Source: Candidatus Poribacteria bacterium | Lineage (GTDB): Bacteria > Poribacteria > WGA-4E > PCPOR2b | Direction: 5' to 3' | Length of the DNA: 64,000 bases | Assembly (NCBI GenBank): GCA_965218095.1 | Contig: OZ244587.1 | Location: 3,840,001 to 3,904,000 of the forward strand | Part shown: piece by piece, positions 30,391 through 59,481 of the stretch | Layout: each line of letters opens with the position of its first letter | Numbering within the stretch: position 1 is the stretch's first letter | Position numbers and translations under genes: made by a program | Notes under the pieces: generated by a model | Databases searched by the model: none | What the model was told of the DNA's origin: nothing | Seen by the model: only the letters and a program-made list of their open reading frames with translations

Positions 30391-32330
30391 GGTTCTGTTG
30401 ACATTTGAGTATAAGGTTGTGGCATAATAGAAGAATGACGCCAATAACCTTACCCGATGACCAATGGAAAAAGATATACTCGTTTCTTCTAACTTGTCCC
30501 AACATCTATGTTGGCAACGAAGCGACAACACGCCGCTTTATCGAAACTGTTCTCTGGGCGACCCGTAGCGGTGCTCAATGGAGACTTCTGCCAGACACCT
30601 ATGGTAAATCGAACACCCTCTATAAGCGTTTTGCACGGTGGTGCGACAAAGGGGGCTTCACACAGATGCACCACCACTTTGCCTCTGACCCCGATATCGA
30701 GTCGCTTATTGTGGACAGTACAATCATTCGAGCGCACCCGTCTGCGGCGGGTGCCGAAAAAAAAAGGGTGGCACTGAAAACTAAGCGTTAGGTCGCTCTC
30801 GCGGGGGATTCAGTACAAAAATTCACATCACAGTTGACGGCCTGGGTAATCCCCTAAGAATACATCTGACGCCCGGTCAAAGAAACGACATAGCGGAAGC
30901 AGAAGGGTTGATACTTGGATATAAAAGCAAGTATGTGATTGGAGACAAGGGATTATGACTCCGACAATTTTATCGCTGTTATTGAGGCGAATGGAGCGAT
31001 TGCGGTGATACCGCCCAAAAGTCATCGTGTGGATCAAAGAGATTACGACAAACATCTGTACAAAGAGAGACATCGGGTTGAATGTTTCATTAACAAGATA
31101 AAATGGTATCGCCGCATCTTCTCTCGGTTCGAGAAGTTATCTATCCGTTATTTTGGATTTCTCAGCTTTGTCTCCACTCTTATATGAGGGGTGTGCATAG
31201 TAGTTCATTGGAAAACAGCCGCCATATGAGAGATATTGCGAGCAGGTAACTTCCATATGGCATTGGCAATCATAGCCACTTGCACTGATAACACCCCGAT
31301 AGCTAAACAACAGCGTACATTGAAAAACCCCTTGACCGGTAACTGCTTCTGTTGAGGAGTGGTGCCTATCACTTTAGCAATCAAGTCAAACAACGGTTCA
31401 ACCGAACTGCGACGTTTGCTTAAACAGAGACGCTGCTTGGGTTGGTTGATAAATCGATGATACGCCTTGGCAAACCGTCCCTTTGTCCATCTAAGTGCCG
31501 GGGTAATCAAAGCGACTTGTGCCTTCGCCCAACGACGGATACGGTCTGCTTGGGTATAGGCATCATCGGCAGTGAGTGTCTGCGGTGAAAGTTGTGTCAG
31601 AATCTCAGACGCTTTAGCATCTATCGCCCAACTTTCGGAGACCGACGCACGGTGCACAGTTATCAGTGTTGGGAACGCACCTTGTGTGCAGATAATGTGA
31701 AGTCCGTAGCCATAGACCCAGCCATGATAACCACTCTTGCTCCACGTGGCATCGGTGTCGAGGTTGCGTAGATGTTTAGGTACTTTTCCTGCTTTGCGGT
31801 CAGTTTGATGCCAGACGGGTCCTCGTGCCTTAAATAAACTTTTGTCGGCTACCAGATGAGCCAAGTTGAATTGTTGGGACAAGTCAGTGGCATACTGACC
31901 GATAAACAATACAAATGCCTCTATCACTTCATATAATGCCTTATAGCGACGTGCAATCGTGGTTCGATGAGGGGGCTGTTGCCACCCCAGCATTTGTAAC
32001 ACTTCTGGGTGATTGATTAGCCACCGCCATTGCGTTTTGAAGCCATAGATGCCGTGAAACTGCATCAACATGAAGAAAATGATAAACGAGGTGGTTGAAT
32101 ATGTCAATGGTTTTGCGTGTGTGACACCTGGTTTGTCAATACGGTGTTGCATAAACTGCTCAAAGAGTTGCATAATAAGAGTGACATAATCAGCCAACAT
32201 TGGTCTTTGTACCATATTGGGGCTCCTTTTGCTATGATAACAATAGGAAACCCTTTTGGCTTGATTATGTCAACTATATTTATGCACACCCCTCACTCTT
32301 ATATGGCTCCCTTGAAATGTCAACAGAACC
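30391..32330 (+). mobile_element. IS5-family element, copy 4, interrupted by IS-A
   Basis: Both TIRs; orfA 30405..30791; orfB damaged and split at 31185/32295. Confidence 0.95.
31186..32294 (-). mobile_element. IS-A copy 1: 1109-bp DDE (IS4/IS5/IS982-like) element, transposase 31205..32215
   Basis: TIR GAGGGGTGTGCATA; 10-bp duplication ACTCTTATAT; DKSLF, DATWSKSGYHGWVYGYGLH, ADDAY and RSSVEPLF motifs. Confidence 0.93.
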
Positions 32331-44563: not shown

Positions 44564-44636
44564 TAACCAAACCGGACGGATTGCGGATGGGATGAAAAAG
44601 TAGAGGCAACTATCAGAAATAATCGTTCAGATAACT

Positions 44637-45741
44637 GAGGGGTGCTCATAAGTCCCCTTATCGAAAGAGTGTAATCAGATGTGTTACATTTCTCAGGGGT
44701 CTTCCCCAAATAGAATTGACTAACATAGCCAGTTGCAGTAAAACCACCCCCAGCATCAAAAAGGTAGAGACATTCGCTTTTCGACTCACCGGCAATTGCT
44801 TATGATTGGTATGGGTCGATAGTAATTGGCTCAACAATCCAAAGATAGGTTCAATAGCAACCTTGCGCTTGTGTTGATAGGTCTGCAACTGCGCCGATTG
44901 ATTCACCGCTTCAACATAACGCCGTGCCCGCTGACTCTTTGCGCCTCTGACGGGAGTGATTAGCAACAGTCCCTGGTTCGCCAAGTGTTGGGTACGTTTC
45001 AAGTCGGTATAGCCGGCATCAGCGACTAAATACCCGATGTTCTGTTCAAGCAGTGTGTCGAGTTGTCGGTCAAGGACGGCTTTTTCACTCACACACGCGG
45101 TGTCAATGGCACTCATACGAGGCAATCCCTCTATAGAGACGGTCAGATGAAGCCCATAGCCGTAAACCCAACCGTGATAGTGACTCTTTGACCAACTGGC
45201 GTCTGTGTCAATGGCACGGATGCCAGTTGGGATGCGATTGGCATTTCTATCCTTCTGATGCCAGACGCTTCCTTTTGCCTTAAACAGACTTTTGTCTTGG
45301 TAAACCACCTCTGGAGGTGAGTCAGGTATCAAAGTCATTCCCACATCACCGAGATACCCGATGAACGCCTCTAGCTGGTAAGCGAGTTGTTTGTAGCGTC
45401 GGCAAAGGGTTGCCCGAGACGGAACACATGCCAGTTTAAGACGACACAGCCACTGCGGGTGTAGCTTGAGCCATCTGTGTTGTGCCTTAAAGCGATGGAG
45501 GCCTTTGAGCGTTAAGATGGCAAAAAGGACAATCAAGCAGTCGTCTGTATACGATTTCGGACGTCCATGGCTCTCAGGTGGCGGTGCATGGCTGGAAGCG
45601 TTGAAATGGTCAAGTTGTTCAAACAAAAATGTGATATAATACGTACTGTCAGGATAACCCATGTTATAATCCTCTCTTTCTTGCACGTTAGATTAGATTA
45701 TAACCGTTATCCTGACTCAAGTCTACTTATGAGCACCCCTC
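44637..45741 (-). mobile_element. IS-B copy 1: 1105-bp DDE element related to IS-A, transposase 44658..45686
   Basis: 17-bp TIR GAGGGGTGCTCATAAGT; AGATAACT on both sides; DKSLF, DASWSKSHYHGWVYGYGLH, ADAGY and RKVAIEPIF motifs. Confidence 0.94.
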
Positions 45742-45749
45742 AGATAACT

Positions 45750-46858
45750 GAGGGGTGTGCATAGTAGTTCATTGGAAAACAGCCGCCATATGAGAGATAT
45801 TGCGAGCAGGTAACTTCCATATGGCATTGGCAATCATAGCCACTTGCACTGATAACACCCCGATAGCTAAACAACAGCGTACATTGAAAAACCCCTTGAC
45901 CGGTAACTGCTTCTGTTGAGGAGTGGTGCCTATCACTTTAGCAATCAAGTCAAACAACGGTTCAACCGAACTGCGACGTTTGCTTAAACAGAGACGCTGC
46001 TTGGGTTGGTTGATAAATCGATGATACGCCTTGGCAAACCGTCCCTTTGTCCATCTAAGTGCCGGGGTAATCAAAGCGACTTGTGCCTTCGCCCAACGAC
46101 GGATACGGTCTGCTTGGGTATAGGCATCATCGGCAGTGAGTGTCTGCGGTGAAAGTTGTGTCAGAATCTCAGACGCTTTAGCATCTATCGCCCAACTTTC
46201 GGAGACCGACGCACGGTGCACAGTTATCAGTGTTGGGAACGCACCTTGTGTGCAGATAATGTGAAGTCCGTAGCCATAGACCCAGCCATGATAACCACTC
46301 TTGCTCCACGTGGCATCGGTGTCGAGGTTGCGTAGATGTTTAGGTACTTTTCCTGCTTTGCGGTCAGTTTGATGCCAGACGGGTCCTCGTGCCTTAAATA
46401 AACTTTTGTCGGCTACCAGATGAGCCAAGTTGAATTGTTGGGACAAGTCAGTGGCATACTGACCGATAAACAATACAAATGCCTCTATCACTTCATATAA
46501 TGCCTTATAGCGACGTGCAATCGTGGTTCGATGAGGGGGCTGTTGCCACCCCAGCATTTGTAACACTTCTGGGTGATTGATTAGCCACCGCCATTGCGTT
46601 TTGAAGCCATAGATGCCGTGAAACTGCATCAACATGAAGAAAATGATAAACGAGGTGGTTGAATATGTCAATGGTTTTGCGTGTGTGACACCTGGTTTGT
46701 CAATACGGTGTTGCATAAACTGCTCAAAGAGTTGCATAATAAGAGTGACATAATCAGCCAACATTGGTCTTTGTACCATATTGGGGCTCCTTTTGCTATG
46801 ATAACAATAGGAAACCCTTTTGGCTTGATTATGTCAACTATATTTATGCACACCCCTC
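45750..46858 (-). mobile_element. IS-A copy 2, transposase 45769..46779
   Basis: Same length and protein as copy 1; flanked by AGATAACT / AGATAAGT. Confidence 0.94.
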
Positions 46859-46944
46859 AGATAAGTAGGGTCGGGTTAAAGAACGGGCAAGGGAAATTCT
46901 TGATGGCAAGAAATAGAACTTTACGTTTTATGTTTCACTGATTT

Positions 46945-47448
46945 ATGCGTATAATCGTTGAGCTTTTCATCCGTTGGATCCATTTGATTGCTGGGATAGT
47001 ATGGTTCAGTGGGATCTTCTTTTCCGCCATCATTGCAACCCCTATTTTGAGACGCAATTTATCCCTCGTTGAAAGCCTCCAGCATACATCGGCGATTCGG
47101 GATCGCCTCCGTGTCATTATCCGTGTTACAATTCATGTGCTGCTAATCACGGGGGCAATGAACTTCTTCATCGTGGGGCTGAATACGAAGATGACATTTT
47201 CGCGGGATTACACCGTGATTTTCGTCGTCAAAATGGGTCTTGTGGCTTTGATGGTGTTGTTTCACAGCCTGCACCTCTCAGTCTTTGGTCGGAAATTGGA
47301 AGAGGTAGTCACCGATCTGAACCCGACTGATTCTACTGTACCGCCATCAACTGCTAAACTTCAAAGACAAACACAGTTGTTCGCAATCCTAACGATTCTT
47401 TCAGGACTGGCTGTGTTTATCCTCGCTCTGGGTCTGAAAGGCGCTTGA
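46945..47448 (+). CDS. CopD/DUF4149-like four-TM membrane protein
   Basis: RWIHLIAGIVWFSG, LLITG..N, KMGLV..M...H. Confidence 0.7.
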   Translation: MRIIVELFIRWIHLIAGIVWFSGIFFSAIIATPILRRNLSLVESLQHTSAIRDRLRVIIRVTIHVLLITGAMNFFIVGLNTKMTFSRDYTVIFVVKMGLVALMVLFHSLHLSVFGRKLEEVVTDLNPTDSTVPPSTAKLQRQTQLFAILTILSGLAVFILALGLKGA

Positions 47449-47482
47449 GGTTATATCAGTCAAATTTAAGAAATGAACCATC

Positions 47483-48340
47483 ATGTTCAAGGGTGAGAAT
47501 GAAATTCAAACAGAAACGTGCTGCATGGCTCTGGGTGGCGCCCTCTTAATGTGCAGTGTTGTGCTCTCAATGAACGTTTGGGCGCAGGCGCCAAAACAAG
47601 CACAAATCACCTTTACATCCACTCGAGATGGGAACTGGGAAATTTACGTGATGGGCCCCGAGGGGAAGAATCCCCGCAACCTGACAAACCATTCTGCGCC
47701 GGATGGTAGGCCGGCGTGGTCTCCGGACAGTCAGCAGATTGTATTCTATTCTAGGCAGCACGGGAACTTTGACATCTACGTGATGGACGCCGACGGGAAA
47801 AACCGCAGCAACCTGACAAATCATCCCGCGATTGACTGGGATCCGGTTTGGTCTCCGGATGGTCGGCAGATTGCATTCTATTCCAAGCGACATAGGAACT
47901 CTGACATCTACGTGATGGACGCTGATGGGAAAAACCGCAGCAACCTGACAAACCATCCCTCGGTTGACGATATGCCGGCATGGTCACCGGATGGTCAGGA
48001 GATTGCTTTCATTTCCAGACGGGATGGGAACTTTGAAATCTACGTGATGAACGCGGATGGAAAAAACCCCCGCAGACTGACGAACCATCCTGCAGATGAT
48101 TACGCGCCGGCATGGTCTCCAGATGGTCAGACGATTGCTTTTCATGCCCAACGGAGCCGGACAGCTGACATCTACGTGATGGATACGGCTGGGAAGAATC
48201 TCCGCAGACTGACAACTCACCCTGCACATGATTATTGTGCTGACTGGTTTAACCCGAAGTTACCCCGTCCTGTTTCTCCCTTGGGCAAATGCCCTTTTAC
48301 GTGGGGGTGGCTCAAGCGGGTGCGATTAAATTTCCGATAA
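47483..48340 (+). CDS. Secreted TolB-like PD40-repeat beta-propeller protein
   Basis: Five ~44-aa repeats (IYVMDADGKN..NLT.H...D..PAWSPDG.QIAF); C-terminal VSPLGK..FTWGWLK. Confidence 0.93.
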   Translation: MFKGENEIQTETCCMALGGALLMCSVVLSMNVWAQAPKQAQITFTSTRDGNWEIYVMGPEGKNPRNLTNHSAPDGRPAWSPDSQQIVFYSRQHGNFDIYVMDADGKNRSNLTNHPAIDWDPVWSPDGRQIAFYSKRHRNSDIYVMDADGKNRSNLTNHPSVDDMPAWSPDGQEIAFISRRDGNFEIYVMNADGKNPRRLTNHPADDYAPAWSPDGQTIAFHAQRSRTADIYVMDTAGKNLRRLTTHPAHDYCADWFNPKLPRPVSPLGKCPFTWGWLKRVRLNFR

Positions 48341-48435
48341 CGTGGGTTCTGCAAAAAACCGATTTGGCGCCTCCATCACATCGTGTGTCATGTAATCCGT
48401 ATCATGCATCACGTTTCACGCTTTAGGGAGCAACA

Positions 48436-49737
48436 ATGGATATGAAAGTCCAGGCCGTCTCGTGGAATATCACGCGGCTATGTAATCTGAAATGTACGCA
48501 CTGCTATCTTCCGGCCGGTTTTGTTGATACGAATGAATTTCCGGATGGATATTACCGCGATTCGGAATTGACTCACTCACAATGCTTTCGCGTGATTGAC
48601 GAGATTGCCGAAATTAACCCTAATATCCTCCTGATTCTTACGGGTGGCGAACCGCTGTTGCGCCCGGACATTTTGGAAATCTCCAAATATGCGGCTCAAA
48701 CCGGTTTCCTCGTTGTCATGGGGACAAACGGCGTGCTTCTGGATGATGAGACCGTTCAGAAGATGCTCGATCACGGCGTCAGCGGAGCCGGAATCAGTCT
48801 AGATTCTATTGATCCGGTCAATCACGACAAGTTCAGGGGGATGGAGGGGGCTTATGAAGCGACGATGAACGGCATCGAAGCCCTCAAACGCGCCAGCGTC
48901 GATTTTCTGGTGCAGACCTCTGTGACGCGCTGGAACTACGATGAGATTCCTCAGATCGTTGAGTTTGCCCATCAGTCAGGCGCGAAAGTCTTGAATCTCT
49001 ATTTTTTGGTGAAGACCGGCCGGGGGAAAACGGTCATGGACATTACCCCCGCGCAGTATGAGCATATGCTCTCGATGCTATTTGAGTTGCAGGCAAAGTA
49101 TCGTGGCAAAATGCTCGTTGCGGCAAAATGCGCCCCGCACTACAAACGGGTGATTTACGAGCAGCAGTCTGACTCCCCCTTCCTCCAAGCCTATCCAAGC
49201 GGCACCTGCCCATGTGGCATCTACTACTGTCGCATCACGCCCGAAGGCAATCTGACGCCATGTCCGTATATGCCGGTGACCGTCGGCAACCTAAAAGAGG
49301 AAAGCTTCGTCATACTCTGGAAAGAATCGAAAATCTTCCAAGATCTGCGAAATCGGAGGTTGTTGGAAGGCAAATGTGGCGCCTGTGAATTTCGTGATGT
49401 TTGCGGTGGTTGTCGTGCCCGCGCCTACGCACTCACGGGAAACTATCTCGCCGAAGATCCCTCCTGCGAATACCAACCGGGACAGTACGGAATTCAGAGC
49501 ATTCGCTTTGAAAAGACAACCCCCTTTGCGGCTGAAATCGCCTTTGAGTTACGATGGACGGATGCAGCCAAAGAACGGCTAAAGCGCGTCCCCTCCTTTG
49601 CGCGGGGGATGGTGACCAAAAGCGTTGAAAAGTATGCCCGTGAGCATAGCTGCCATGAGATTACGCCGGAGATCATGAAGGCTGTGAAGGAGAGCTTTGA
49701 TAAAACGGGAATTCCGTCCTTCAGCCCACGACGCTAG
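48436..49737 (+). CDS. AhbC/AhbD/NirJ-like radical SAM-SPASM protein with C-terminal PCP_red-like domain
   Basis: WNITRLCNLKCTHC, LTGGEPLLR, CAPHY, GKCGACEF..VCGGCRARAY; tail WTDAAKERLKRVPSFARGMV. Confidence 0.9.
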   Translation: MDMKVQAVSWNITRLCNLKCTHCYLPAGFVDTNEFPDGYYRDSELTHSQCFRVIDEIAEINPNILLILTGGEPLLRPDILEISKYAAQTGFLVVMGTNGVLLDDETVQKMLDHGVSGAGISLDSIDPVNHDKFRGMEGAYEATMNGIEALKRASVDFLVQTSVTRWNYDEIPQIVEFAHQSGAKVLNLYFLVKTGRGKTVMDITPAQYEHMLSMLFELQAKYRGKMLVAAKCAPHYKRVIYEQQSDSPFLQAYPSGTCPCGIYYCRITPEGNLTPCPYMPVTVGNLKEESFVILWKESKIFQDLRNRRLLEGKCGACEFRDVCGGCRARAYALTGNYLAEDPSCEYQPGQYGIQSIRFEKTTPFAAEIAFELRWTDAAKERLKRVPSFARGMVTKSVEKYAREHSCHEITPEIMKAVKESFDKTGIPSFSPRR

Positions 49738-49815
49738 AAGAAGTTCAAGAGTTCAGGAGTTTATCAGTTCATTTGCACATTATGCTTTACACTTCACGCT
49801 TGAGGAGAAAAAGTC

Positions 49816-50250
49816 ATGAGTACACAAAACAAGGTTGAAGAACGACTCTCTGCTGTCGAAGACCGACTGGATCGCCTGGAAGATCTGCTGATTGGCATCA
49901 GCCAGAAATTGGATTACAAACCCCAGCCAGCTCCCGTTGATGAAGAGAAGGCGGAAACACTCAAGGGGTGGGTGACCGATTATGTGTCAATGCGTTTACA
50001 ACAGCTTGTGCCTGAAACGTGTGATCATCCCCCCACTGAAACGCAGGTGCTTGCATCCCGATTTGTCGGGGAAGGACCGTTTCTGGGCAACACGTCAATC
50101 CGTTGCACAGAAGAAGTAGTCCACCGCGTTAAACGTATTCCGATCCCATTTGTTCGGGATATGGTTGTCCAACGTGTCGCTGAAAACGCCCGTGATGCAA
50201 ATGTAGATCTAGTCGATATAGAATTTTTTGAGAAAGCGGCGACCTTTTGA
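49816..50250 (+). CDS. Coiled-coil protein with C-terminal PCP_red-like domain
   Basis: CTEEVVHRVKRIPIPFVRDMVVQRVAENAR...VDIEFF; GAGGAG RBS. Confidence 0.7.
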   Translation: MSTQNKVEERLSAVEDRLDRLEDLLIGISQKLDYKPQPAPVDEEKAETLKGWVTDYVSMRLQQLVPETCDHPPTETQVLASRFVGEGPFLGNTSIRCTEEVVHRVKRIPIPFVRDMVVQRVAENARDANVDLVDIEFFEKAATF

Positions 50251-50349
50251 CAGTGCAAAGCAACGGAGGAGTTCCCTCTGCCGCACTTCCATTGGGAGGA
50301 TTTTTTGACGGCTCCGCTCTGAGCCGGTGTCAAATTCCCAACTTTAGGC

Positions 50350-50473
50350 TAGGGCTATTTAATTCTCCAACCAGCCCACAGAAAATCATGATCGAGATCC
50401 TTCGCAAAGCCTCAGGATGACTGAATTTGTCGCTCTGAACGAAGTGAAGAATCTCGAAAACTAAATGACCCTA
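50350..50473. mobile_element. 124-bp MITE with 8-bp target duplication, enclosing a GAGATCCTTCG...AGGATGAC-type REP
   Basis: Ends TAGGGCTATTTAATT / AACTAAATGACCCTA; CTTTAGGC duplicated at 50342 and 50474; the same left end recurs at 58188..58202. Confidence 0.72.
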
Positions 50474-50509
50474 CTTTAGGCACTTTAGCTCACGTTAGGC
50501 ACTTCAAAC

Positions 50510-50890
50510 ATGGAATGGGTACTTAATCTTTTCTCTGAATATCTTGAAAACGACTTCAAAAAACGATTGGGAAATCCCAAACCGACAGTTGATGAACTGT
50601 GGGAAGCGTTTAAGGTGTTTTTTCCAACCACCACTGCGAGGCTATTGGTACAAGAACCTGTCGGAAACACGGTTCGATTTAAGTCGCTTGTGTTCTATTA
50701 TGCCGATGAAATGGGACCGTTGATCGAAGATCCGATGGGCTACATCAAGGAAAATTTCGGTGGCGGGAAATTCAAGATTAACTTCTATCAGGGCATGCAA
50801 TTCATTGCAACGATTAACTTCAAACCAGAGGGATCCGAGATCTGGCGTGATTTGCCGGAACTGGATGAGTCACAAATATCTGTCGATTGA
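50510..50890 (+). CDS. Hypothetical protein
   Basis: Clean ORF co-directional with neighbours; no recognised motif. Confidence 0.7.
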   Translation: MEWVLNLFSEYLENDFKKRLGNPKPTVDELWEAFKVFFPTTTARLLVQEPVGNTVRFKSLVFYYADEMGPLIEDPMGYIKENFGGGKFKINFYQGMQFIATINFKPEGSEIWRDLPELDESQISVD

Positions 50891-50911
50891 GTCGGGCAAC
50901 GTATCGAAATT

Positions 50912-51334
50912 ATGAGCTCTCAACAGAAATTTACAGAGTGCCCCAAATGTCATAGCAAGAACGTACAGGCGGTCGGTGAAGATGGGTGGTTCTGCCTCGA
51001 TTGCGAGTGGGATAATCTGACCGCTGTCACCAAACCAATAGATTCGCTGATTTCCGCCTTGCGACACGGCGATCGGGAAGCACGGCGAGAAGCAGCGCAA
51101 GCATTGATCAATACTGGGGATTTTGATCGGCACCTCGCAACGCCGGATGATATTGAGCCCTTGTTTGAAGCCCTTGGCGATCCGGATGACGACATCCGCT
51201 ATTTTGCGGCTGTTGCACTGGGAAAGCTTGGCGATGCATGTGCACTTACGAGGCTCAAACAAGTCGCACAAAGCGATCCTGCTGTGCTGGTACGTGAGGG
51301 CGCTAAGACCGCAATTGAACGGATTGAGGGATGA
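50912..51334 (+). CDS. HEAT-repeat protein with N-terminal zinc ribbon
   Basis: CPKC...CLDC; two to three PBS-lyase HEAT repeats. Confidence 0.85.
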   Translation: MSSQQKFTECPKCHSKNVQAVGEDGWFCLDCEWDNLTAVTKPIDSLISALRHGDREARREAAQALINTGDFDRHLATPDDIEPLFEALGDPDDDIRYFAAVALGKLGDACALTRLKQVAQSDPAVLVREGAKTAIERIEG

Positions 51335-51420
51335 TTCGATACATCCACGAAATTTTCTCAAGAAAGCCTCTGTGTTTTTGAACATAGAGAACACTTACGC
51401 CTTTTTGGAGTTGAAGACTA

Positions 51421-52240
51421 GGTTCTGTTGACATTTCAAGGGAGCCATATAAGAGTGGAGACAAAGCTGAGAAATCCAAAATAACGGACAGCTAGCTTCT
51501 CAAACCGAGAGAAGATACGACGATACCATTTTATCTTGTTGATGAAACATTCAACCCGATGTCTTTCTTTGTATAAGTGTTTGTCATACGTTCTTTGGTC
51601 AACACGATGACTTTTTGGCGGTATCACCGCAATCGCTCCATTCGCCTCAATAACCGCGATAAAAGCGTCCGAATCGTACCCCTTGTCTCCAATCACATAT
51701 TCACTGTTATATCCGATTATCAACCCTTCCGCCTCAGTTATGTCATGTCTCTGACCGGGTGTCAGATGAATTCTTAGGGGATTGCCTAGTCCGTCAACGG
51801 TGATGTGATTTTTTGTACTGAAACCGCCCCGAGACCGACCTAATGCTTGGTTTTCAGTGCCACCCTTTTTTTTAAGGCGCCCGCCGCAGACGGGTGAGCG
51901 CGGCAGATGGTACTGTCCACAATAAGCGACTTGATATCGGGGTCAGAGGCGAAGTGGGGGTGCATCTGTGTGAAGATACCTTTGTCGCACCATCGAGCAA
52001 ACCGCTTGTAGCGGGTGTTCGATTTGCCATAGGTGTCTGGTAGAAGTCTCCATTGAGCCCCGCTACGAGTCACCCACAGAACCGCTTCGACGAAGCGGCG
52101 TGTAGCAGCTTCGTTGCCAACATAGATGGTGAGACAGCTAAGAAGAAACCGGTATATCTTATTCCATTGTTCATCAGGTAAGGTTATTGGCGTCATTCTT
52201 CTATTATGCCACAACCTTATACTCAAATGTCAACAGAACC
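51421..52240 (-). mobile_element. IS5-family element, copy 6 (two-ORF form)
   Basis: Both TIRs; orfA 51840..52226, orfB ending 51436; A8GGG junction. Confidence 0.96.
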
Positions 52241-54333
52241 TAGTTCAAGCTACATCGCCGGTATCTTGTGGTTGATGAATACTTCCCCGCCGGCGCAACG
52301 TTAGTTGAAGGCTCCGTTGAAGACGGTTCGCACCATTACGAGTACGAGGTCGGCGATGGCGTTATCCGTTTTTATTATCCGCCGGGGAAGTACCTTCACG
52401 ACTATCGTTATCAATTGGTGAGTTATGCGCCCGGCAATTACCGCGTGGCGCCCACTGTCATCCGTGACCCGATGTACCCCGGCGATATGCGAATTGGAAA
52501 CAGGGCTTCGCTCACCGTGTTGGCGCCCGGTGAAAAATCCACCGACCTATACAAGATGAATGATGGGGAACGCTACGCGCTCGGGAAAGCATACTTTGAC
52601 GATGGCAGGTATAGCGATGCCCTCTCACTACTTGAAGAATTCACGCGCACAACCCCGATTACAATGAGAAAGAGACTGCGCGGATGCTGCTGTGGATATA
52701 TACCACGAAAGCACACTACAACGCCCGGAAAGTGGTCGAGGCTTTTGAGATCTTACGTGAGCGATACCCCGAACTCTATATCCCCTTCGACAAGATTCGT
52801 GTTGTTGGGACCGCCTATTGAGACATCGAGGAGTTTGAACGGGCTGCCCTTGTTTATCAGGCGACAATTGACGCTAGCTTCGCCAACGATTCCCATGTGA
52901 GTGCGGTCTTGCAAGACGAAGGGCAGTTCCTGCGTTCGATCGACTTCACGGAAAATCTGTGGTATGCGTATCCAGACACATCGCCGGTAATTTCCGCTTA
53001 CTTTTCGCTCACGCAATCCCTCTACGCGAACAAGGACGCAGAGATGCAGCAGGTGCAGGTGTGGGAGGGTGAGGAAGGGGAATGGAAGAACGGAAGGATG
53101 GAAGGAAAGGAAAGAAGTGGGCATAAGGGACATGCAATATGTCTGACGAAGTGGGATATTCTCAAACGCACCGTAGCGATGCTGTCACAATTCCTGACGT
53201 TGTACCCGAGTCACCCGCTTGCCGATGATGCCGCGTTTTCGCTGGCGAATGCTTTGCTAGACCTTGAAGATTTCTCAAGGGTCGTACGCCTGTGTCAGTT
53301 GAACCAGGAACGGTATCCTGATAGCGATTTCCTAACCAGTTTTTAGTATGTCGAGGCGATTGGTTTGTTCTCAATGCAGCAGCATGACAAGGCGATTGCG
53401 GCAGCAACCGTTGTCACCGAAAGCGAGAACGAAGATCGAGATTTCGCTCGATATATTCTGGGACAGATCTATCACGCACAGGGAAAACCGCCCCAAGCCA
53501 TTGAGTGGTACACCCGCGTCAAGTTGATCTACCCGGATGCGAACGAATCGATCGCCTACTTTGAAGAAAAGCGAATCTCACTGCCCGAAGTGACGATTAA
53601 GCGCCCAGATCAGACTGTGGCGATTTCACTTAAGTATCGGAATATCAAAACGGCGGTGCTTCAGGTGTATCACGTTGATCTGATGAAGCTGTATCTGCGC
53701 GAAAAAGACCTCAGCCGCGTCACCGAAGTTCATTTAGCAGGAATCAAGCCGGAGGTGAGCCAAACTGTGGCGCTTGGTGATGGGAAAGATTATATCAATA
53801 AAACCCGTGAGATTACCCTGTCGCTCAAGGAAGAAGGTGCATACCTCGTGATTTGTCGAGGGGATGACCTGTTTACGAGCGGCTTAATCCTGATTACGCC
53901 GCTGGAAATTGAGGTGCAGGAAGAGCGTGTGAGTGGTTGTGTGCGCGCTAACGTGCGGAACACCGTCACAGGGAATTATCAGTCGAAAGTCCACGTCAAA
54001 GTGGTTGGATCCACGGATGGGCGTTTTATCTCCGGCGAAACCGATCTTCGGGGCGTTTTTATCGCCGATGACGTCCGTGGAAAAGTCACCATCATCGCGC
54101 GTGACGCAGCCAACCGCTATGCGTTCTATTGCGGAGAACAATGGCTTGGGGCGGCGGAAGCGGCAAAGCAGGAGCAGCAGAATCGACCTATGCCCTCGCC
54201 GCGAGAGTCTATGGATTATCGCAGGCATCTAAACCGAAGAAACCGAGCCATCCAGTCATTACAAATTAAGACATATGATCAGATGCGTCGGAGCGCTGGA
54301 AGAGGTGTACAGGTCCAAAACGCGCTTGAATAG
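52241..54333 (+). pseudogene. 3' portion of a large alpha-2-macroglobulin-like/TPR protein gene; 5' part absent, frameshift ~52650, TAG 53344
   Basis: YLVVDEYFPAGA...PGNYRVAP (A2M-like), TPR repeats, GETDLRG MG-like domain. Confidence 0.75.
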
Positions 54334-54426
54334 TGGGATGTGTACTATCACTAACCCCTTAAGAACCCGCATCGGAACTGGACAGTTAACGTCGTAAGAG
54401 TACAGAGCCTGCCCTGATCTATCGGG

Positions 54427-54486
54427 GAGTTCATGGGTTCATTGAACTTTTGAACCTTTGAACTCAAATCGCGGGTCGTTTTCTCA
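54427..54486. repeat. Inverted copy of the 40259..40322 repeat, preceded by REP-like CTGCCCTGATCTATCGGGG
   Basis: Direct sequence comparison. Confidence 0.7.
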
Positions 54487-54518
54487 ATGCGCTAAATGGA
54501 GCAGATTTTCTCACGCAT

Positions 54519-55505
54519 TTAGTGATAGCACACCATTCCCCTTTGTACATCATCTATAATTTGAGTGATTTCTTCATAATTTTTGCAAGTCACTAACCTT
54601 TCTCGATATGGTTTAATGTTCGGTATGCCCTTAAAATAGTTTCGATAATGCTTTCTCATCTCTAAAATACCCAATCTCAACCCCTTCCATTTAATAGAGA
54701 GATCCAGATGTTTTCTTAAAACACTTACCCTTTCCTTTATGGAAGGGGGCGCCAGCAACCGTCTCGTCGAAAAGTAGTGTTTAATTTCTCTAAAGACCCA
54801 CGGGTAACCGATAGCGGCTCGCCCAATCATAATCCCATCTACGCCGTATTCTTTCCGCATCGCCAGTGCTTTCTGTGGACTATCCACATCCCCATTCCCA
54901 AAAACAGGGATTTTCATGCGAGGATTATTTTTGATTTCACCAATCAGCGTCCAATCAGCATCGCCTTTATACATTTGCGCCCGGGTCCGTCCGTGAATCG
55001 TAATCGCTTGAATGCCAACATCCTGTAATTTTTCGGCGACTTCGACGATGTATTTTGTCTTTTCGTCCCAACCGAGTCGGGTTTTTACGGTCACGGGGGT
55101 GGTGGTGGATTTAGCCAGTTCTTCGGTCATTTTTACCATCTTCGGAACATCTAACAAGATTCCCGCCCCCGCCCCTTTGCATGCTACCTTTTTGACAGGG
55201 CAGCCGTAGTTGATGTCAATCAGGTCTGGATTGACCTGTTCAGCAATCTCAACAGCGTCTTTCATCGATTCAATATCACTTCCAAAAACCTGAATCCCTA
55301 TCGGGCGTTCCGATTCAAAGATATCGAGCTTTGCGACACTCTTTTGGGCGTTTCTGATGAGTCCTTCGGAAGAGATGAACTCTGTATACATCAAGTCCAC
55401 CTCATCTTCTTTGCAAACCGCACGAAAAGGTGGGTCGCTCACATCTTCCATCGGGGCTAACAACAGCGGGAAATCCCCTATCTCTATATCGCCAATCTTT
55501 ACCAT
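54519..55505 (-). CDS. dusB: tRNA dihydrouridine synthase DusB
   Basis: LAPMED, DINYGCP, VTVKTRLGW, IHGRT, GNGD, MIGRAAIG.PW. Confidence 0.96.
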   Translation of the reverse strand: MVKIGDIEIGDFPLLLAPMEDVSDPPFRAVCKEDEVDLMYTEFISSEGLIRNAQKSVAKLDIFESERPIGIQVFGSDIESMKDAVEIAEQVNPDLIDINYGCPVKKVACKGAGAGILLDVPKMVKMTEELAKSTTTPVTVKTRLGWDEKTKYIVEVAEKLQDVGIQAITIHGRTRAQMYKGDADWTLIGEIKNNPRMKIPVFGNGDVDSPQKALAMRKEYGVDGIMIGRAAIGYPWVFREIKHYFSTRRLLAPPSIKERVSVLRKHLDLSIKWKGLRLGILEMRKHYRNYFKGIPNIKPYRERLVTCKNYEEITQIIDDVQRGMVCYH

Positions 55506-55809
55506 AGCCAAATCATCTCCAGTTGATCGCCGCAATGTCCACATCGGGTATGGGGTGGATGTCAAATTATAAAAGTAAAACAGACGTTTGTCAATCAAAT
55601 CTGGAATATTGGCTTTTGGCGAGACTCAATGGGCATGCAAGGATGCATAACGCCTGAATGGGCATTTTCGCGCCGAACATGAGAACGGGTTCAAAATCGG
55701 GGATTGCCAACTCGACAGGAAAATTCTTCTAACCCTTTGTACACGATCGAGGTTTCAGCAGTTTAGTTACGGCTTCGCATGTTGCGGACTGTTTGTTTGC
55801 ATTTGTGCC

Positions 55810-56103
55810 TCACACCTCAAGCGCCATTCCCCCCGCACTATAGACGAATATTACCCGCTCAAGGTCGCCTGCCAACCGGTTCATCGCTGCAACGAACGCG
55901 GTCTCCGCGCCTTCGTCGGGCGGCTCAAATCCCAAGAAGACTACAGCCGCGTCAGACGATGCGCGTCGAATTGCCTCCCCGACATCCGTGGATACAACCA
56001 CGACCGGCATCGCCTCAATGCGGGATGTCTCAATCAGTTCGCTCAGGTGCCGGATTGTCTCCGCTTGTCCCGTTTCCAAAGGAATGACGCGAAGCAAGCG
56101 CAT
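55810..56103 (-). pseudogene. C-terminal scrap of an amino acid permease/SLC12-like transporter
   Basis: ASSDAAVVFLGFEPP...VIFVYSAGGM resembles the cytoplasmic tail; no upstream body. Confidence 0.45.
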
Positions 56104-56109
56104 GAAGGT

Positions 56110-56163
56110 TCGGAGTTAGGCGATTTATCGCCGTCAAAACACGCAATGAATCGCGCTACTACT
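56110..56163. repeat. Degenerate GTAG-type REP doublet
   Basis: GGCGATTTATCGCC and GCAATGAATCGCGCTACTAC. Confidence 0.55.
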
Positions 56164-56211
56164 AGCCAACTGCGTAACTTACCTGCACAGCTTTACAAGG
56201 TCAAGTGGTTT

Positions 56212-57243
56212 TCACTGTACAGAATGTGGAGATTGACCGCAAGTGACGACGTCAACCAGGTCTGTGTTGTCCATCACGCCGGAGATTCGCTCGGCATTAA
56301 CGCCCCAGCTATAGAGAGGAACATTGGTCGTTGTATGACCGCCGGTAGACCAGGAGACGGTCGGGAAATTGCCATGACCGTTGTTTTCAAGGACTTTCAA
56401 TCCGCCGGTTTCGTGGTCGGCGGTGACGATAATGAGGGTGTCAGAACGTCCCTTTGCCCAATCAAACGCCACCTGCACGGTCTTGGAAAACTCGATCGTC
56501 TCGAAGACATTGCGCTGGATGTCGTTGGAGTGTCCTGCGTGATCGATCCGTCCGCCCTCGATCATCAGAAAGAAACCATTTGGATCTTTCGTCAATATGT
56601 CCAGGGCGGTTGTAGCCATTTCCGACAGGTGAGGTAACGCGCCGAGTCCATCGAATTCATAAGGCAGGTTCGTGTCGCCAAACTGTCCGGAGACCCTCGT
56701 GACTGTTTCTGTGTCCAAACTTAGCAAACTGTTCCGATCCGTCACGACAGTGTAGCCAGCCGCCTCCGCTGCCGTTTCCGACATCCCGTTGCCACCGCCG
56801 CCAAGTAGCACATTCGGGCAGGTCTGATTCAAGTAATCCCCGGCGATCTCAGCCAGATTGCCGCGCTGTGGTTCGTGGGCGCCGAAGGCGGCGGGTGTAG
56901 CGTGGGTGATAAAGGTCGTGGTGACCAGTCCCGTGCTTTTGCCTTGATCTTTAAAACCCTCCAGGAGCGTATACAATTCCCTCCCATCACCCGGCAGCGC
57001 CGTGCTGATGACCCCGTTGTTGACCTTGAAGCCGGTTGCCATGGCGGTCGCGGCAGCCGCCGAGTCAGTCGTGGAAGAATTGGCTGAGTACGTAGTCATC
57101 TCGGCTTGATAAGGAAACGCCTCAAATGAGAGTGTTCCTGCCTCGCCATGGATGTATATTCCGGCCGCCTTGACCTTCTCGAATCCCATTCCGTCGCCGA
57201 TGCAGAAGATAACGTTTGTCGGCGATGTCGGCTTTTTGCGCAT
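56212..57243 (-). CDS. Alkaline phosphatase (PhoA family)
   Basis: IGDGMG, TDSAAAATA, THATPAAF, EGGRIDHAGH, TADHETGG, GHT. Confidence 0.95.
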   Translation of the reverse strand: MRKKPTSPTNVIFCIGDGMGFEKVKAAGIYIHGEAGTLSFEAFPYQAEMTTYSANSSTTDSAAAATAMATGFKVNNGVISTALPGDGRELYTLLEGFKDQGKSTGLVTTTFITHATPAAFGAHEPQRGNLAEIAGDYLNQTCPNVLLGGGGNGMSETAAEAAGYTVVTDRNSLLSLDTETVTRVSGQFGDTNLPYEFDGLGALPHLSEMATTALDILTKDPNGFFLMIEGGRIDHAGHSNDIQRNVFETIEFSKTVQVAFDWAKGRSDTLIIVTADHETGGLKVLENNGHGNFPTVSWSTGGHTTTNVPLYSWGVNAERISGVMDNTDLVDVVTCGQSPHSVQ

Positions 57244-57479
57244 CGATTTTCCTTTCTATATTATCTTACGTATGGTTGCTTATATCCTTTTCAAACTCCA
57301 ACCGTGTATATCGGATGAAGATACAACCGCTCAGCCGTGCGATGGAACCGTTGACCGCGAGACAGGCGATAACATGCCGCACACCAGGTTCCACGCTTTC
57401 GGAGACCTGCACGCGCTGAGGCGTATTGAAGCCCGATATCGCACCCCATCCCGATTCACCAAACGCAAGGTCGCACTCG

Positions 57480-58012
57480 CTTATTTTTTTAAAAGCTCCG
57501 CCATAATCTGTGGGTGGTACAGCCTGTCGGCGCGCAGGCGATCATACGCCTTGCAGTAAATCCATGTTTTCCGTTGCGGATCGCGAATATCGTATTTTTC
57601 GGGATAGCGGACTGGCAGTTTACCCTACGTTAACATCAGAGACAGCGGATAATCCTGCACGGTCAGCGGCAGACGAACTACCTCGCGATCGCGCGCCGAC
57701 GGGTAAATCGCCATCATGATTTCGACAGCGTGACGTGTCTGCGTCCCTTTGCTGTGGTAGTCAGCATCCCCATCCAGCCACGCCTTCAAACCTCGTGCTT
57801 GAGCAGCGTAGGCAATGTGGAAATACCCCTCCAGCCCCACCGATTGGGCTGCAGATTCCGTGGGAATGACAAAAGTCTCTTGAAACGTACTCGCAGTCTC
57901 GAGGGTCCGCTGCGGCGACGAGATGAAAGCCTAGCACACTCTGATATGCCTGCGTGTGCCGCCGGGCGATGCTGCCACAACCGATGATGCCAACGCGATA
58001 ACTTGTCACCAC
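57480..58012 (-). pseudogene. Gfo/Idh/MocA oxidoreductase remnant (large internal deletion, stops)
   Basis: YRVGIIGCGSIARRH N-terminus; AVEIMMAIYPSAR..EVVRLPL C-terminus. Confidence 0.7.
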
Positions 58013-58202
58013 GTTATGAACCTCCTTTTCAGTTCGCTTATGAGCTATCCCTTCACTCCAGATTCTACATAAACTATTTTAGCAGAAATCAAAAATTCCC
58101 TCAACATTAAAATGTTAAATTCCGTGCCGGCTCTTGGTACGCTTCCAATTCGTACACTTTTCACGAGAAAAGCAGGTCGCTTCGATGTAGGGCTATTTAA
58201 TT

Positions 58203-59307
58203 GAGGGGTGCTCATAAGTCCCCTTATCGAAAGAGTGTAATCAGATGTGTTACATTTCTCAGGGGTCTTCCCCAAATAGAATTGACTAACATAGCCAGTT
58301 GCAGTAAAACCACCCCCAGCATCAAAAAGGTAGAGACATTCGCTTTTCGACTCACCGGCAATTGCTTATGATTGGTATGGGTCGATAGTAATTGGCTCAA
58401 CAATCCAAAGATAGGTTCAATAGCAACCTTGCGCTTGTGTTGATAGGTCTGCAACTGCGCCGATTGATTCACCGCTTCAACATAACGCCGTGCCCGCTGA
58501 CTCTTTGCGCCTCTGACGGGAGTGATTAGCAACAGTCCCTGGTTCGCCAAGTGTTGGGTACGTTTCAAGTCGGTATAGCCGGCATCAGCGACTAAATACC
58601 CGATGTTCTGTTCAAGCAGTGTGTCGAGTTGTCGGTCAAGGACGGCTTTTTCACTCACACACGCGGTGTCAATGGCACTCATACGAGGCAATCCCTCTAT
58701 AGAGACGGTCAGATGAAGCCCATAGCCGTAAACCCAACCGTGATAGTGACTCTTTGACCAACTAGCGTCTGTGTCAATGGCACGGATGCCAGTTGGGATG
58801 CGATTGGCATTTCTATCCTTCTGATGCCAGACGCTTCCTTTTGCCTTAAACAGACTTTTGTCTTGGTAAACCACCTCTGGAGGTGAGTCAGGTATCAAAG
58901 TCATTCCCACATCACCGAGATACCCGATGAACGCCTCTAGCTGGTAAGCGAGTTGTTTGTAGCGTCGGCAAAGGGTTGCCCGAGACGGAACACATGCCAG
59001 TTTAAGACGACACAGCCACTGCGGGTGTAGCTTGAGCCATCTGTGTTGTGCCTTAAAGCGATGGAGGCCTTTGAGCGTTAAGATGGCAAAAAGGACAATC
59101 AAGCAGTCGTCTGTATACGATTTCGGACGTCCATGGCTCTCAGGTGGCGGTGCATGGCTGGAAGCGTTGAAATGGTCAAGTTGTTCAAACAAAAATGTGA
59201 TATAATACGTACTGTCAGGATAACCCATGTTATAATCCTCTCTTTCTTGCACGTTAGATTAGATTATAACCGTTATCCTGACTCAAGTCTATTTATGAGC
59301 CCCCCTC
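58203..59307 (-). mobile_element. IS-B copy 2, transposase 58224..59252
   Basis: Same length and protein as copy 1; variant terminal repeat at 59291..59307. Confidence 0.94.
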
Positions 59308-59315
59308 AGCTAACT

Positions 59316-59448
59316 GAGGGGGGCTCATAATTCTGTCGGAGGGAAATCCTTTTCCCCACCCTCTCGGTGCTGAAGCGACATCATCGCAGGCTGCATCTCC
59401 CACCGGAAGAATCGTGGCAAGGATGCCACATATTTATGCATACCCCTC
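59316..59448. mobile_element. 133-bp MITE of the IS-A/IS-B family
   Basis: Left end GAGGGGGGCTCATAA (IS-B-like), right end ATATTTATGCATACCCCTC (IS-A-like); flanks AGCTAACT / GGTTAACT. Confidence 0.85.
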
Positions 59449-59481
59449 GGTTAACTAACAGCATGTATTGGCTGCACGCAA

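Follow-up and report, generated by a model that had tools for sequence, protein, structure and literature searches.

Insertion sequences (IS) that settle beside a resident element are known from a few systems, and with these we compare an arrangement found in Candidatus Poribacteria, a phylum that has not been cultivated and to which symbionts of sponges belong. The stretch studied is a window of 64,000 nucleotides (GenBank assembly GCA_965218095.1, contig OZ244587.1, positions 3,840,001 to 3,904,000) in a genome present as a single contig of 6.35 Mb; positions below are those of the window unless marked "genome". At two loci in it, two related elements termed ISA and ISB, and a 133-bp stretch with similar ends, follow one another at a distance of exactly 8 bp.

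In the IS982 family, target-site duplications (TSDs) measure 3-9 bp, the proteins have about 271-313 aa and the terminal repeats end in 5'-AC. The Poribacteria elements resemble this family in their length of about 1.1 kb, their single open reading frame (ORF) for a DDE transposase, their short terminal inverted repeats and their 8- or 9-bp TSDs, which fall within that range; they differ in the size of their proteins (334-342 aa) and in their tips, which read 5'-GAGGGG in ISA and ISB and 5'-GAGGGT in a third relative, ISC. Palindromic targets are known in the DDE_Tnp_1 superfamily, which includes IS4 and IS5 and with which the present proteins share matches above cut-off to Pfam DDE_Tnp_1 and DDE_Tnp_1_3 and a putative DDE triad. 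A member of that superfamily, IS231A, reportedly favours the terminal repeat of Tn4430 as its natural target and inserts inside the repeat with a TSD of 10-12 bp, whereas ISA and ISB insert outside the tip, in the resident's own TSD. IS26, of the IS6 family, is directed at an identical IS26, and the incoming element shares this copy and makes no new duplication; ISA and ISB, in contrast, are partners that differ from each other, and each keeps an 8-bp duplication. The targeted conservative reaction of IS26, as outlined in parts of PMC4196232 and PMC4894685, prefers a site adjoining an existing copy and builds arrays. The part of PMC2266710 that deals with IS4 subgroups gives them CA/CT tips together with a YREK motif, a length between 1150 and 5400 bp and TSDs mostly of 8-13 bp, from which ISA and ISB depart by their GAGGGG tips, their length of 1.1 kb and their scores under the cut-offs of the IS4 models. 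For IS30, passages of PMC9333248 on inverted-repeat (IR) targeting describe insertion beside a resident inverted repeat, tip-tip junctions and products of sequence conversion, the element transposing by copy-out-paste-in with a 2-bp duplication and forming highly reactive junctions exclusively between left and right repeats (IRL-IRR). The junctions at resident ends described below are similar, and conversion between ends is among the products those passages report; ISA and ISB, however, belong to a different family, are spaced by 8-bp TSDs, occur in all orientations, and form mixed pairs that are stably fixed.

The 8-bp spacer is a target-site duplication

ISA and ISB each consist of one ORF, on the minus strand in the window, between inverted-repeat tips of the form GAGGGG..CATA, and their transposases are 38% identical (123/328, E 9e-79). 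The genome holds 39 copies of ISA (identity at least 99.7%) and 14 of ISB (at least 99.6%). Because the ORFs are intact in 38/39 and 14/14 copies, respectively, and many copies are identical in their DNA (14 of ISA and 10 of ISB), the family has been recently active. The preliminary description of this DNA had the full-length elements pointing in one direction; this holds for the four copies in the window but not genome-wide, where ISA occurs 20 times on the plus and 19 times on the minus strand, and ISB seven times on each.

Exact repeats, mostly of 8 bp, flank 35 of the 53 ISA and ISB copies. They were found at 29/39 copies of ISA (22 of 8 bp, six of 9 bp and one of 10 bp) and, with 8 bp, at 6/14 copies of ISB, making 28 copies with an 8-bp and six with a 9-bp duplication. 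Other Poribacteria genomes show flanking repeats of this kind too, and 52 of their elements, each with an exact 8-bp repeat, were used for a target logo. At 73 solitary sites from this and the other genomes, the logo has A1 in 69, T4 in 69, A5 in 72 and T8 in 71, and outside the 8-mer the flanks display merely a weak T-Y / R-A preference. The 8 bp between elements is a TSD at a palindromic A-N2-T-A-N2-T target and not, as first described, a conserved spacer: the spacer sequences differ and have only the target consensus in common. The accompanying idea of a specific target that survives insertion was borne out, as a copy of the target is left on each side of an element and relatives retain a single-copy empty site. 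An extended target resembling an IS tip (CTC-8mer-GAG) was also considered and rejected, since no tip-like GAG/CTC preference was found in the flanks of the 73 solitary sites and A was commoner than G at position +9 (36 versus 20).

A scan of the genome for CCCCTC-Nk-GAGGGG, as the preliminary description had proposed, returned eight sites at k=8 and between none and two at each other k from 0 to 30; the reversed arrangement of the tip motifs did not occur at k=8 anywhere in the genome. The 8-bp spacing is not chance. Seven of the eight sites are family junctions, to which two with degenerate tips can be added, and all nine have an 8-bp spacer that fits the target consensus. Three of the nine join ISA to ISB, one joins ISB to ISC, two join ISB to a short non-autonomous element, and in the other three an IS abuts a family end that is solo or truncated; half of the ISB copies (7/14) and 5/39 ISA copies take part. 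In the ISB+ISC stack, three identical 8-mers, AATTATAT, are preserved. Junctions are start::start, stop::stop and tandem, so that the head-to-tail stacking originally proposed is only one of the arrangements. The claim that each junction is a hairpin was upheld by folding energies of -16.6 and -21.2 kcal/mol (z -7.2 and -9.7; 0/200 shuffles match); the hairpins are an automatic by-product, because two inverted-repeat tips abut.

The pattern recurs outside this genome. A search for CACCCCTC-N(0-20)-GAGGGGTG in 121 Poribacteria genomes gave 17 places; N is 8 at 13 of them, of which five belong to this genome and eight are spread over five others, and 13/13 of these spacers fit A-N2-TA-N2-T; in another genome an ISA-like and an ISB-like element form a pair with three identical 8-mers, AATTACTT. 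These observations bear on the possibility that what is seen is not two independent insertions but an intermediate of transposition, for instance an IS dimer or the circle junction of a copy-out-paste-in element. Circles and dimers of the IS3 and IS30 type do present abutted tips with a spacer of TSD length (for IS30, in the part of PMC9333248 concerned), but every full-length pair found here joins different elements (38% protein identity), which a single-element circle or dimer cannot do, and the junctions occur in all orientations, as opposed to the IRL-IRR junctions alone that the same part of PMC9333248 gives for IS30. As they are also chromosomally fixed and recur in other assemblies, we consider this explanation very improbable.

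In the window, the coordinates and anatomy given in the preliminary description, with two loci and exact 8-bp abutment, were confirmed. The features are as follows.

44629..44636, no strand: left TSD copy of ISB, AGATAACT, same letters as 45742-45749
44637..45741, minus strand: ISB copy 1, 1105 bp, tips GAGGGGTGCTCATAAG, one of the 14 ISB copies with intact ORFs
44658-45686, minus strand: transposase of ISB copy 1, likely start M9 (334 aa)
45742..45749, no strand: 8-bp AGATAACT shared by ISB and ISA, right TSD of ISB and, apparently altered, left TSD of ISA
45750..46858, minus strand: ISA, 1109 bp, tips GAGGGGTGTGCATA, one of the 39 copies
45769-46779, minus strand: ISA transposase, 336 aa
46859..46866, no strand: 8-bp AGATAAGT, the target sequence in its original form and right-hand TSD of ISA
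58195..58202, no strand: ATTTAATT, 8-mer flanking ISB copy 2, the matching TSD copy now lying next to the ISB at genome 4488190 (flank-partner search)
58203..59307, minus strand: ISB copy 2, 1105 bp, stop-proximal tip normal, start-proximal tip variant
59308..59315, no strand: AGCTAACT, 8-bp spacer that separates ISB copy 2 from the 133-bp stretch
59316..59448, plus strand: non-autonomous stretch of 133 bp, bounded by an ISB-variant and an ISA-like tip of the family, present once in the genome, without TSD
59449..59456, no strand: GGTTAACT, on the outer side of the 133-bp stretch, different from the 8-mer at 59308-59315
31186..32294, minus strand: solitary ISA copy, 1109 bp, direct repeat ACTCTTATAT on both sides

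The 8-mers thus read, in order, AGATAACT/AGATAACT/AGATAAGT at locus 1 and ATTTAATT/AGCTAACT/GGTTAACT at locus 2, where GGTTAACT departs from the target consensus at one of its four fixed positions (G for A at position 1) and agrees with it at the other three. At locus 1 the empty site was observed directly. In two public runs, X4 and X6, which stem from two other studies, contigs pass from 44626 straight to 46857, the two sides having 8 letters in common, and omit 2230 bp, which is exactly 1105+8+1109+8; the comparison of empty sites that had been suggested at the outset shows that these related strains lack both elements and keep one 8-mer, reading AGATAAGT. In the most economical history, ISA would have arrived first, in AGATAAGT, which it would have duplicated; its left copy would then have been altered to AGATAACT, and ISB would have come last, into this AGATAACT, duplicating it in turn. 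One X6 contig links 45763 with 46844, omitting 1080 bp, its shorter side being only 20 letters long; it may come from a related strain that has a deletion element derived from ISA, or may be noise. The ISB+ISA stack is intergenic and lies upstream of a CopD-like gene (46945-47448, plus strand; 31.5 bits, just below the cut-off of 32.1), which is found just downstream of it on the map.

The same contigs bear on whether the tandem junctions are assembly artefacts, made from collapsed or mis-joined repeats. The k-mer contigs of the public runs end inside the multicopy ISB or ISA and did not bridge ISB::ISA, so that they neither support nor contradict this junction, which is a limit of the check only. 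The empty-site contigs, on the other hand, omit exactly both elements and two 8-mers, the nine junctions of this genome are all spaced at exactly 8 bp with target-like spacers, and eight more are present in five independently assembled genomes; with this evidence an artefact is scarcely credible.

Proposed reuse of the target and possible attraction to resident ends

On balance, we lean towards passive reuse of the TSD-regenerated palindromic target as the cause of stacking, an ordinary mechanism in an unnamed, recently active IS family. The transposase would bind terminal inverted repeats of about 16 bp, of the GAGGG(G/T)G..CATAA form, and insertion would proceed by an 8-bp, occasionally 9-bp, staggered cut at the A-N2-T-A-N2-T target. 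Once the cut was repaired, each tip would be bordered by one complete copy of the favoured target, and later insertion of any family member into that copy would give tip-8 bp-tip, with the spacer as a shared TSD. Any relative orientation would be possible because the target is palindromic. Same-element pairs would subsequently be lost, tandem ones through recombination and inverted ones because they make up 1.1-kb palindromes that are unstable, and the arrays would be mixed because only mixed pairs survive such loss. Neither ISA::ISA nor full ISB::ISB pairs occur in the genome; at genome 5073967 an ISB is faced by a solo ISB tip of 21 bp, which may be the remnant of a lost same-element pair. 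Pairs might also move as a unit; this would fit an ISA::ISB pair at genome 3683172-3685393, in which the outer 8-mers are both ATTTTTAT, the inner 8-mer is different, and both outer tips are ISA-type. Dedicated recognition of a resident end would not be needed, and a surplus of junctions would stem from high-quality sites and selection.

Several results weigh against reuse as the full explanation. A weight matrix whose training sites all came from other genomes assigned to resident flanks 2.1% of the insertion propensity of this genome, which leads to an expectation of 0.6-1.4 junctions, compared to the 7-9 seen (Poisson P between 6e-4 and 2e-8); if the matrix includes this genome's own sites, the expectation is 2.0-2.7. 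Two corrections could be measured. Insertions fall in ORFs of at least 150 aa in 10/35 cases, against 58% when weighted by propensity, which gives a factor of about 1.7 for selection; regional clustering, which is mild with 10 gaps below 15 kb versus 5.9 expected (P 0.057), also gives about 1.7. Between them they account for only some of the surplus, to which selection adds little. As to the supposed loss of same-element pairs, its only trace is the solo tip at genome 5073967. In addition, elements are either exactly 8 bp apart or at least about 2 kb away from each other (between loci, the shortest distance from midpoint to midpoint is 3105 bp), an all-or-nothing spacing that a loose "safe neighbourhood" does not predict; nested insertions (none seen versus 0.4 expected) are too few in expectation to inform on the "safe DNA" idea. 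Lastly, a G7 tip variant is found on both sides of two junctions and ISA-type tips on 2/14 ISB copies, and such variants common to abutting ends hint at physical interaction or conversion.

These results raise the question of end-directed targeting on top of the TSD mechanism, in which the tip DNA of a resident relative, or transposase bound to it, would attract the incoming complex. It would resemble IS30 IR-targeting or the IS26 reaction, but independently of orientation and with a full 8-bp duplication. We regard this as a possibility to be taken seriously, though one that we incline against. It would explain why nine junctions are present, an excess that grows if only mixed pairs are counted (about 0.6 expected by simple proportion), and would suit the higher share of ISB copies in junctions and the insertion of ISA against decayed solo ends at genome 2029444 and 5150680. 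The shared tip variants would have a precedent in the conversion mentioned for IS30 in the pertinent part of PMC9333248. Junctions are also similarly frequent elsewhere, at 16/213 strict ends in five other genomes, a figure that is biased as these genomes were picked for having junctions. Conversely, the flanks of solitary sites (n=73) lack the tip-like preference that this explanation would lead one to look for. A weaker target score at junction spacers, which would be a sign of help from the resident end, was not seen: the medians were 8.4 and 8.75 bits versus 8.3 for ordinary targets (Mann-Whitney P 0.32), and the resident end is not visibly substituting for target quality. Selection and clustering, about 2.9-fold together, raise the expectation to about 1.8-4, against which nine junctions are only moderately surprising, and the weight matrix ignores features that may make a once-used site better than its score.

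The earlier proposal that the transposase recognises a relative's end thus finds some support in that junctions exceed what sequence-only reuse predicts, and is weakened in that selection, clustering and site quality could cover much of the excess. A few-fold surplus stays, caused either by aspects of site quality outside the model or by a genuine pull of resident ends. We put forward only tentatively the bolder view that the transposases actively search out the ends of relatives already in place, whatever the orientation, and insert against them with full 8-bp duplication, and that the stacks exchange tip sequence and move as compound units. If true, this would be kin-end targeting across elements only 38% identical, in a family and a phylum without prior description of it. 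Target reuse nevertheless remains the reading that we prefer.

ISC, the 133-bp stretch and exchange between copies

ISC is 1098 bp long, has tips GAGGGTGG..CATAA, and is represented by fragments and by three copies:

genome 3575189-3576286: ISC
genome 5938668-5939766: ISC
genome 5956546-5957643: ISC

Its transposase is read in two frames or interrupted by TAG. Several miniature inverted-repeat transposable elements (MITEs) of ISC type, 130-250 bp in length, and solo ends are scattered over the genome; one multi-copy example lies at genome 4489303-4489546, with the TSD ACTTAACT. The 133-bp stretch of locus 2, also presented as a MITE at first, does have family-type ends, one of which equals an ISB variant over 15 nt and the other ISA over about 20 nt with one mismatch. 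Its tips are therefore mixed, it has one copy in the genome, and its flanks AGCTAACT and GGTTAACT differ. Because it is single-copy and without a TSD, "MITE" is only a loose label for it.

The neighbouring ISB copy 2 differs from copy 1 at three positions, two of them near the start-proximal end and including the mirror of the G7 tip variant. Its flanks do not match each other, and the left one, ATTTAATT, recurs beside an inverted ISB at genome 4488190-4489294; tip variants are split between these two copies. ISB copy 2 is probably a recombinant, and the data fit an inversion of about 590 kb by recombination between it and the ISB at genome 4488190, with ATTTAATT exchanged one way. A second inverted ISB pair, at genome 2092912-2094016 and 2542273-2543377, has AGTTAAGT and AGCTACTT swapped reciprocally, which points to an inversion of about 450 kb by recombination between the two. 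When GC skew was used as a check on these inversions and on orientation bias, the signal was too weak and noisy. At genome 4422445-4424482 there is also a rearranged family copy with the halves of its transposase on opposite strands.

Family placement and occurrence in Poribacteria

Comparison with named families was made with Pfam and NCBIfam models. Both transposases exceed the gathering cut-off of DDE_Tnp_1, a check that the preliminary description had recommended: ISB scores 35.4 bits (cut-off 23) with DDE_Tnp_1 (PF01609) and 35.8 bits (cut-off 27) with DDE_Tnp_1_3 (PF13612), and ISA 29.5 bits (cut-off 23) with DDE_Tnp_1. Residues D131, D223 and E279 (ISB numbering) are invariant in 13/13 aligned sequences and, judging from motif context, probably form the catalytic DDE triad. 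The best NCBIfam model is IS982 for all 13 members tested (best E 3.6e-17), yet among the scores listed none attains the model's cut-off of 130 bits (NF033520), with 57.1 bits for ISB and 36.9 bits for ISA, and the alignment covers only the catalytic core (residues 158-298). The IS1182, IS5 and IS4 models score lower; those for IS5 and IS4 give 19-27 bits versus cut-offs of 110-140 (IS4 NF033592, 21.5 versus 115), and the N-terminal region weakly matches an IS5 model. The original reluctance to name an IS family was hence justified, with IS982 as the best but insufficient match (57 versus 130 bits). ISA, ISB and ISC are best described as an unnamed, IS982-like branch of the DDE_Tnp_1 transposases, an assignment that draws on protein models.

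As for ISB, the length of 342 aa in the preliminary description is obtained by reading from a GTG; database homologues have 334 aa and start at the equivalent of M9, which corrects it. Relatives in a plasmid collection are merely distant (26-32% identity) and annotated "transposase". A search of PDB sequences with the family profile gave nothing below E 0.18, and a literature search on Poribacteria insertion sequences and transposases returned no account of ISA, ISB or ISC. The window also contains an unrelated IS-like ORF pair (51436-52226, minus strand) with matches to DUF4096 (69.9 bits) and DDE_Tnp_1_2 (26.9 bits, just below the cut-off of 29.2), which looks like an IS5/IS427-type element split over two frames.

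The IS982-like branch is widespread in Candidatus Poribacteria: with ISB as query, the transposase is present in 41 of the 121 sampled genomes at E 1e-20 or better, and all 80 related loci retrieved are from Candidatus Poribacteria assemblies. One related genome (G098:C1) has 88 strict family tips and no transposase match to the ISB query at that threshold; there, for example at 3712758-3713271, the tip motif is arranged in an array with a 100-bp period.

Recombination between dispersed IS copies would account for large inversions in this genome. The leftover surplus of junctions is a modest, testable hint of end-directed targeting, and what has been described is otherwise standard transposon mechanics. 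With the tips of the family defined, along with the 8-bp TSD and the A-N2-TA-N2-T target, Poribacteria genomes should be easier to annotate, and the stacks may serve as a natural example of how a palindromic target regenerated by duplication can lead to mixed IS pairs and then to compound units.

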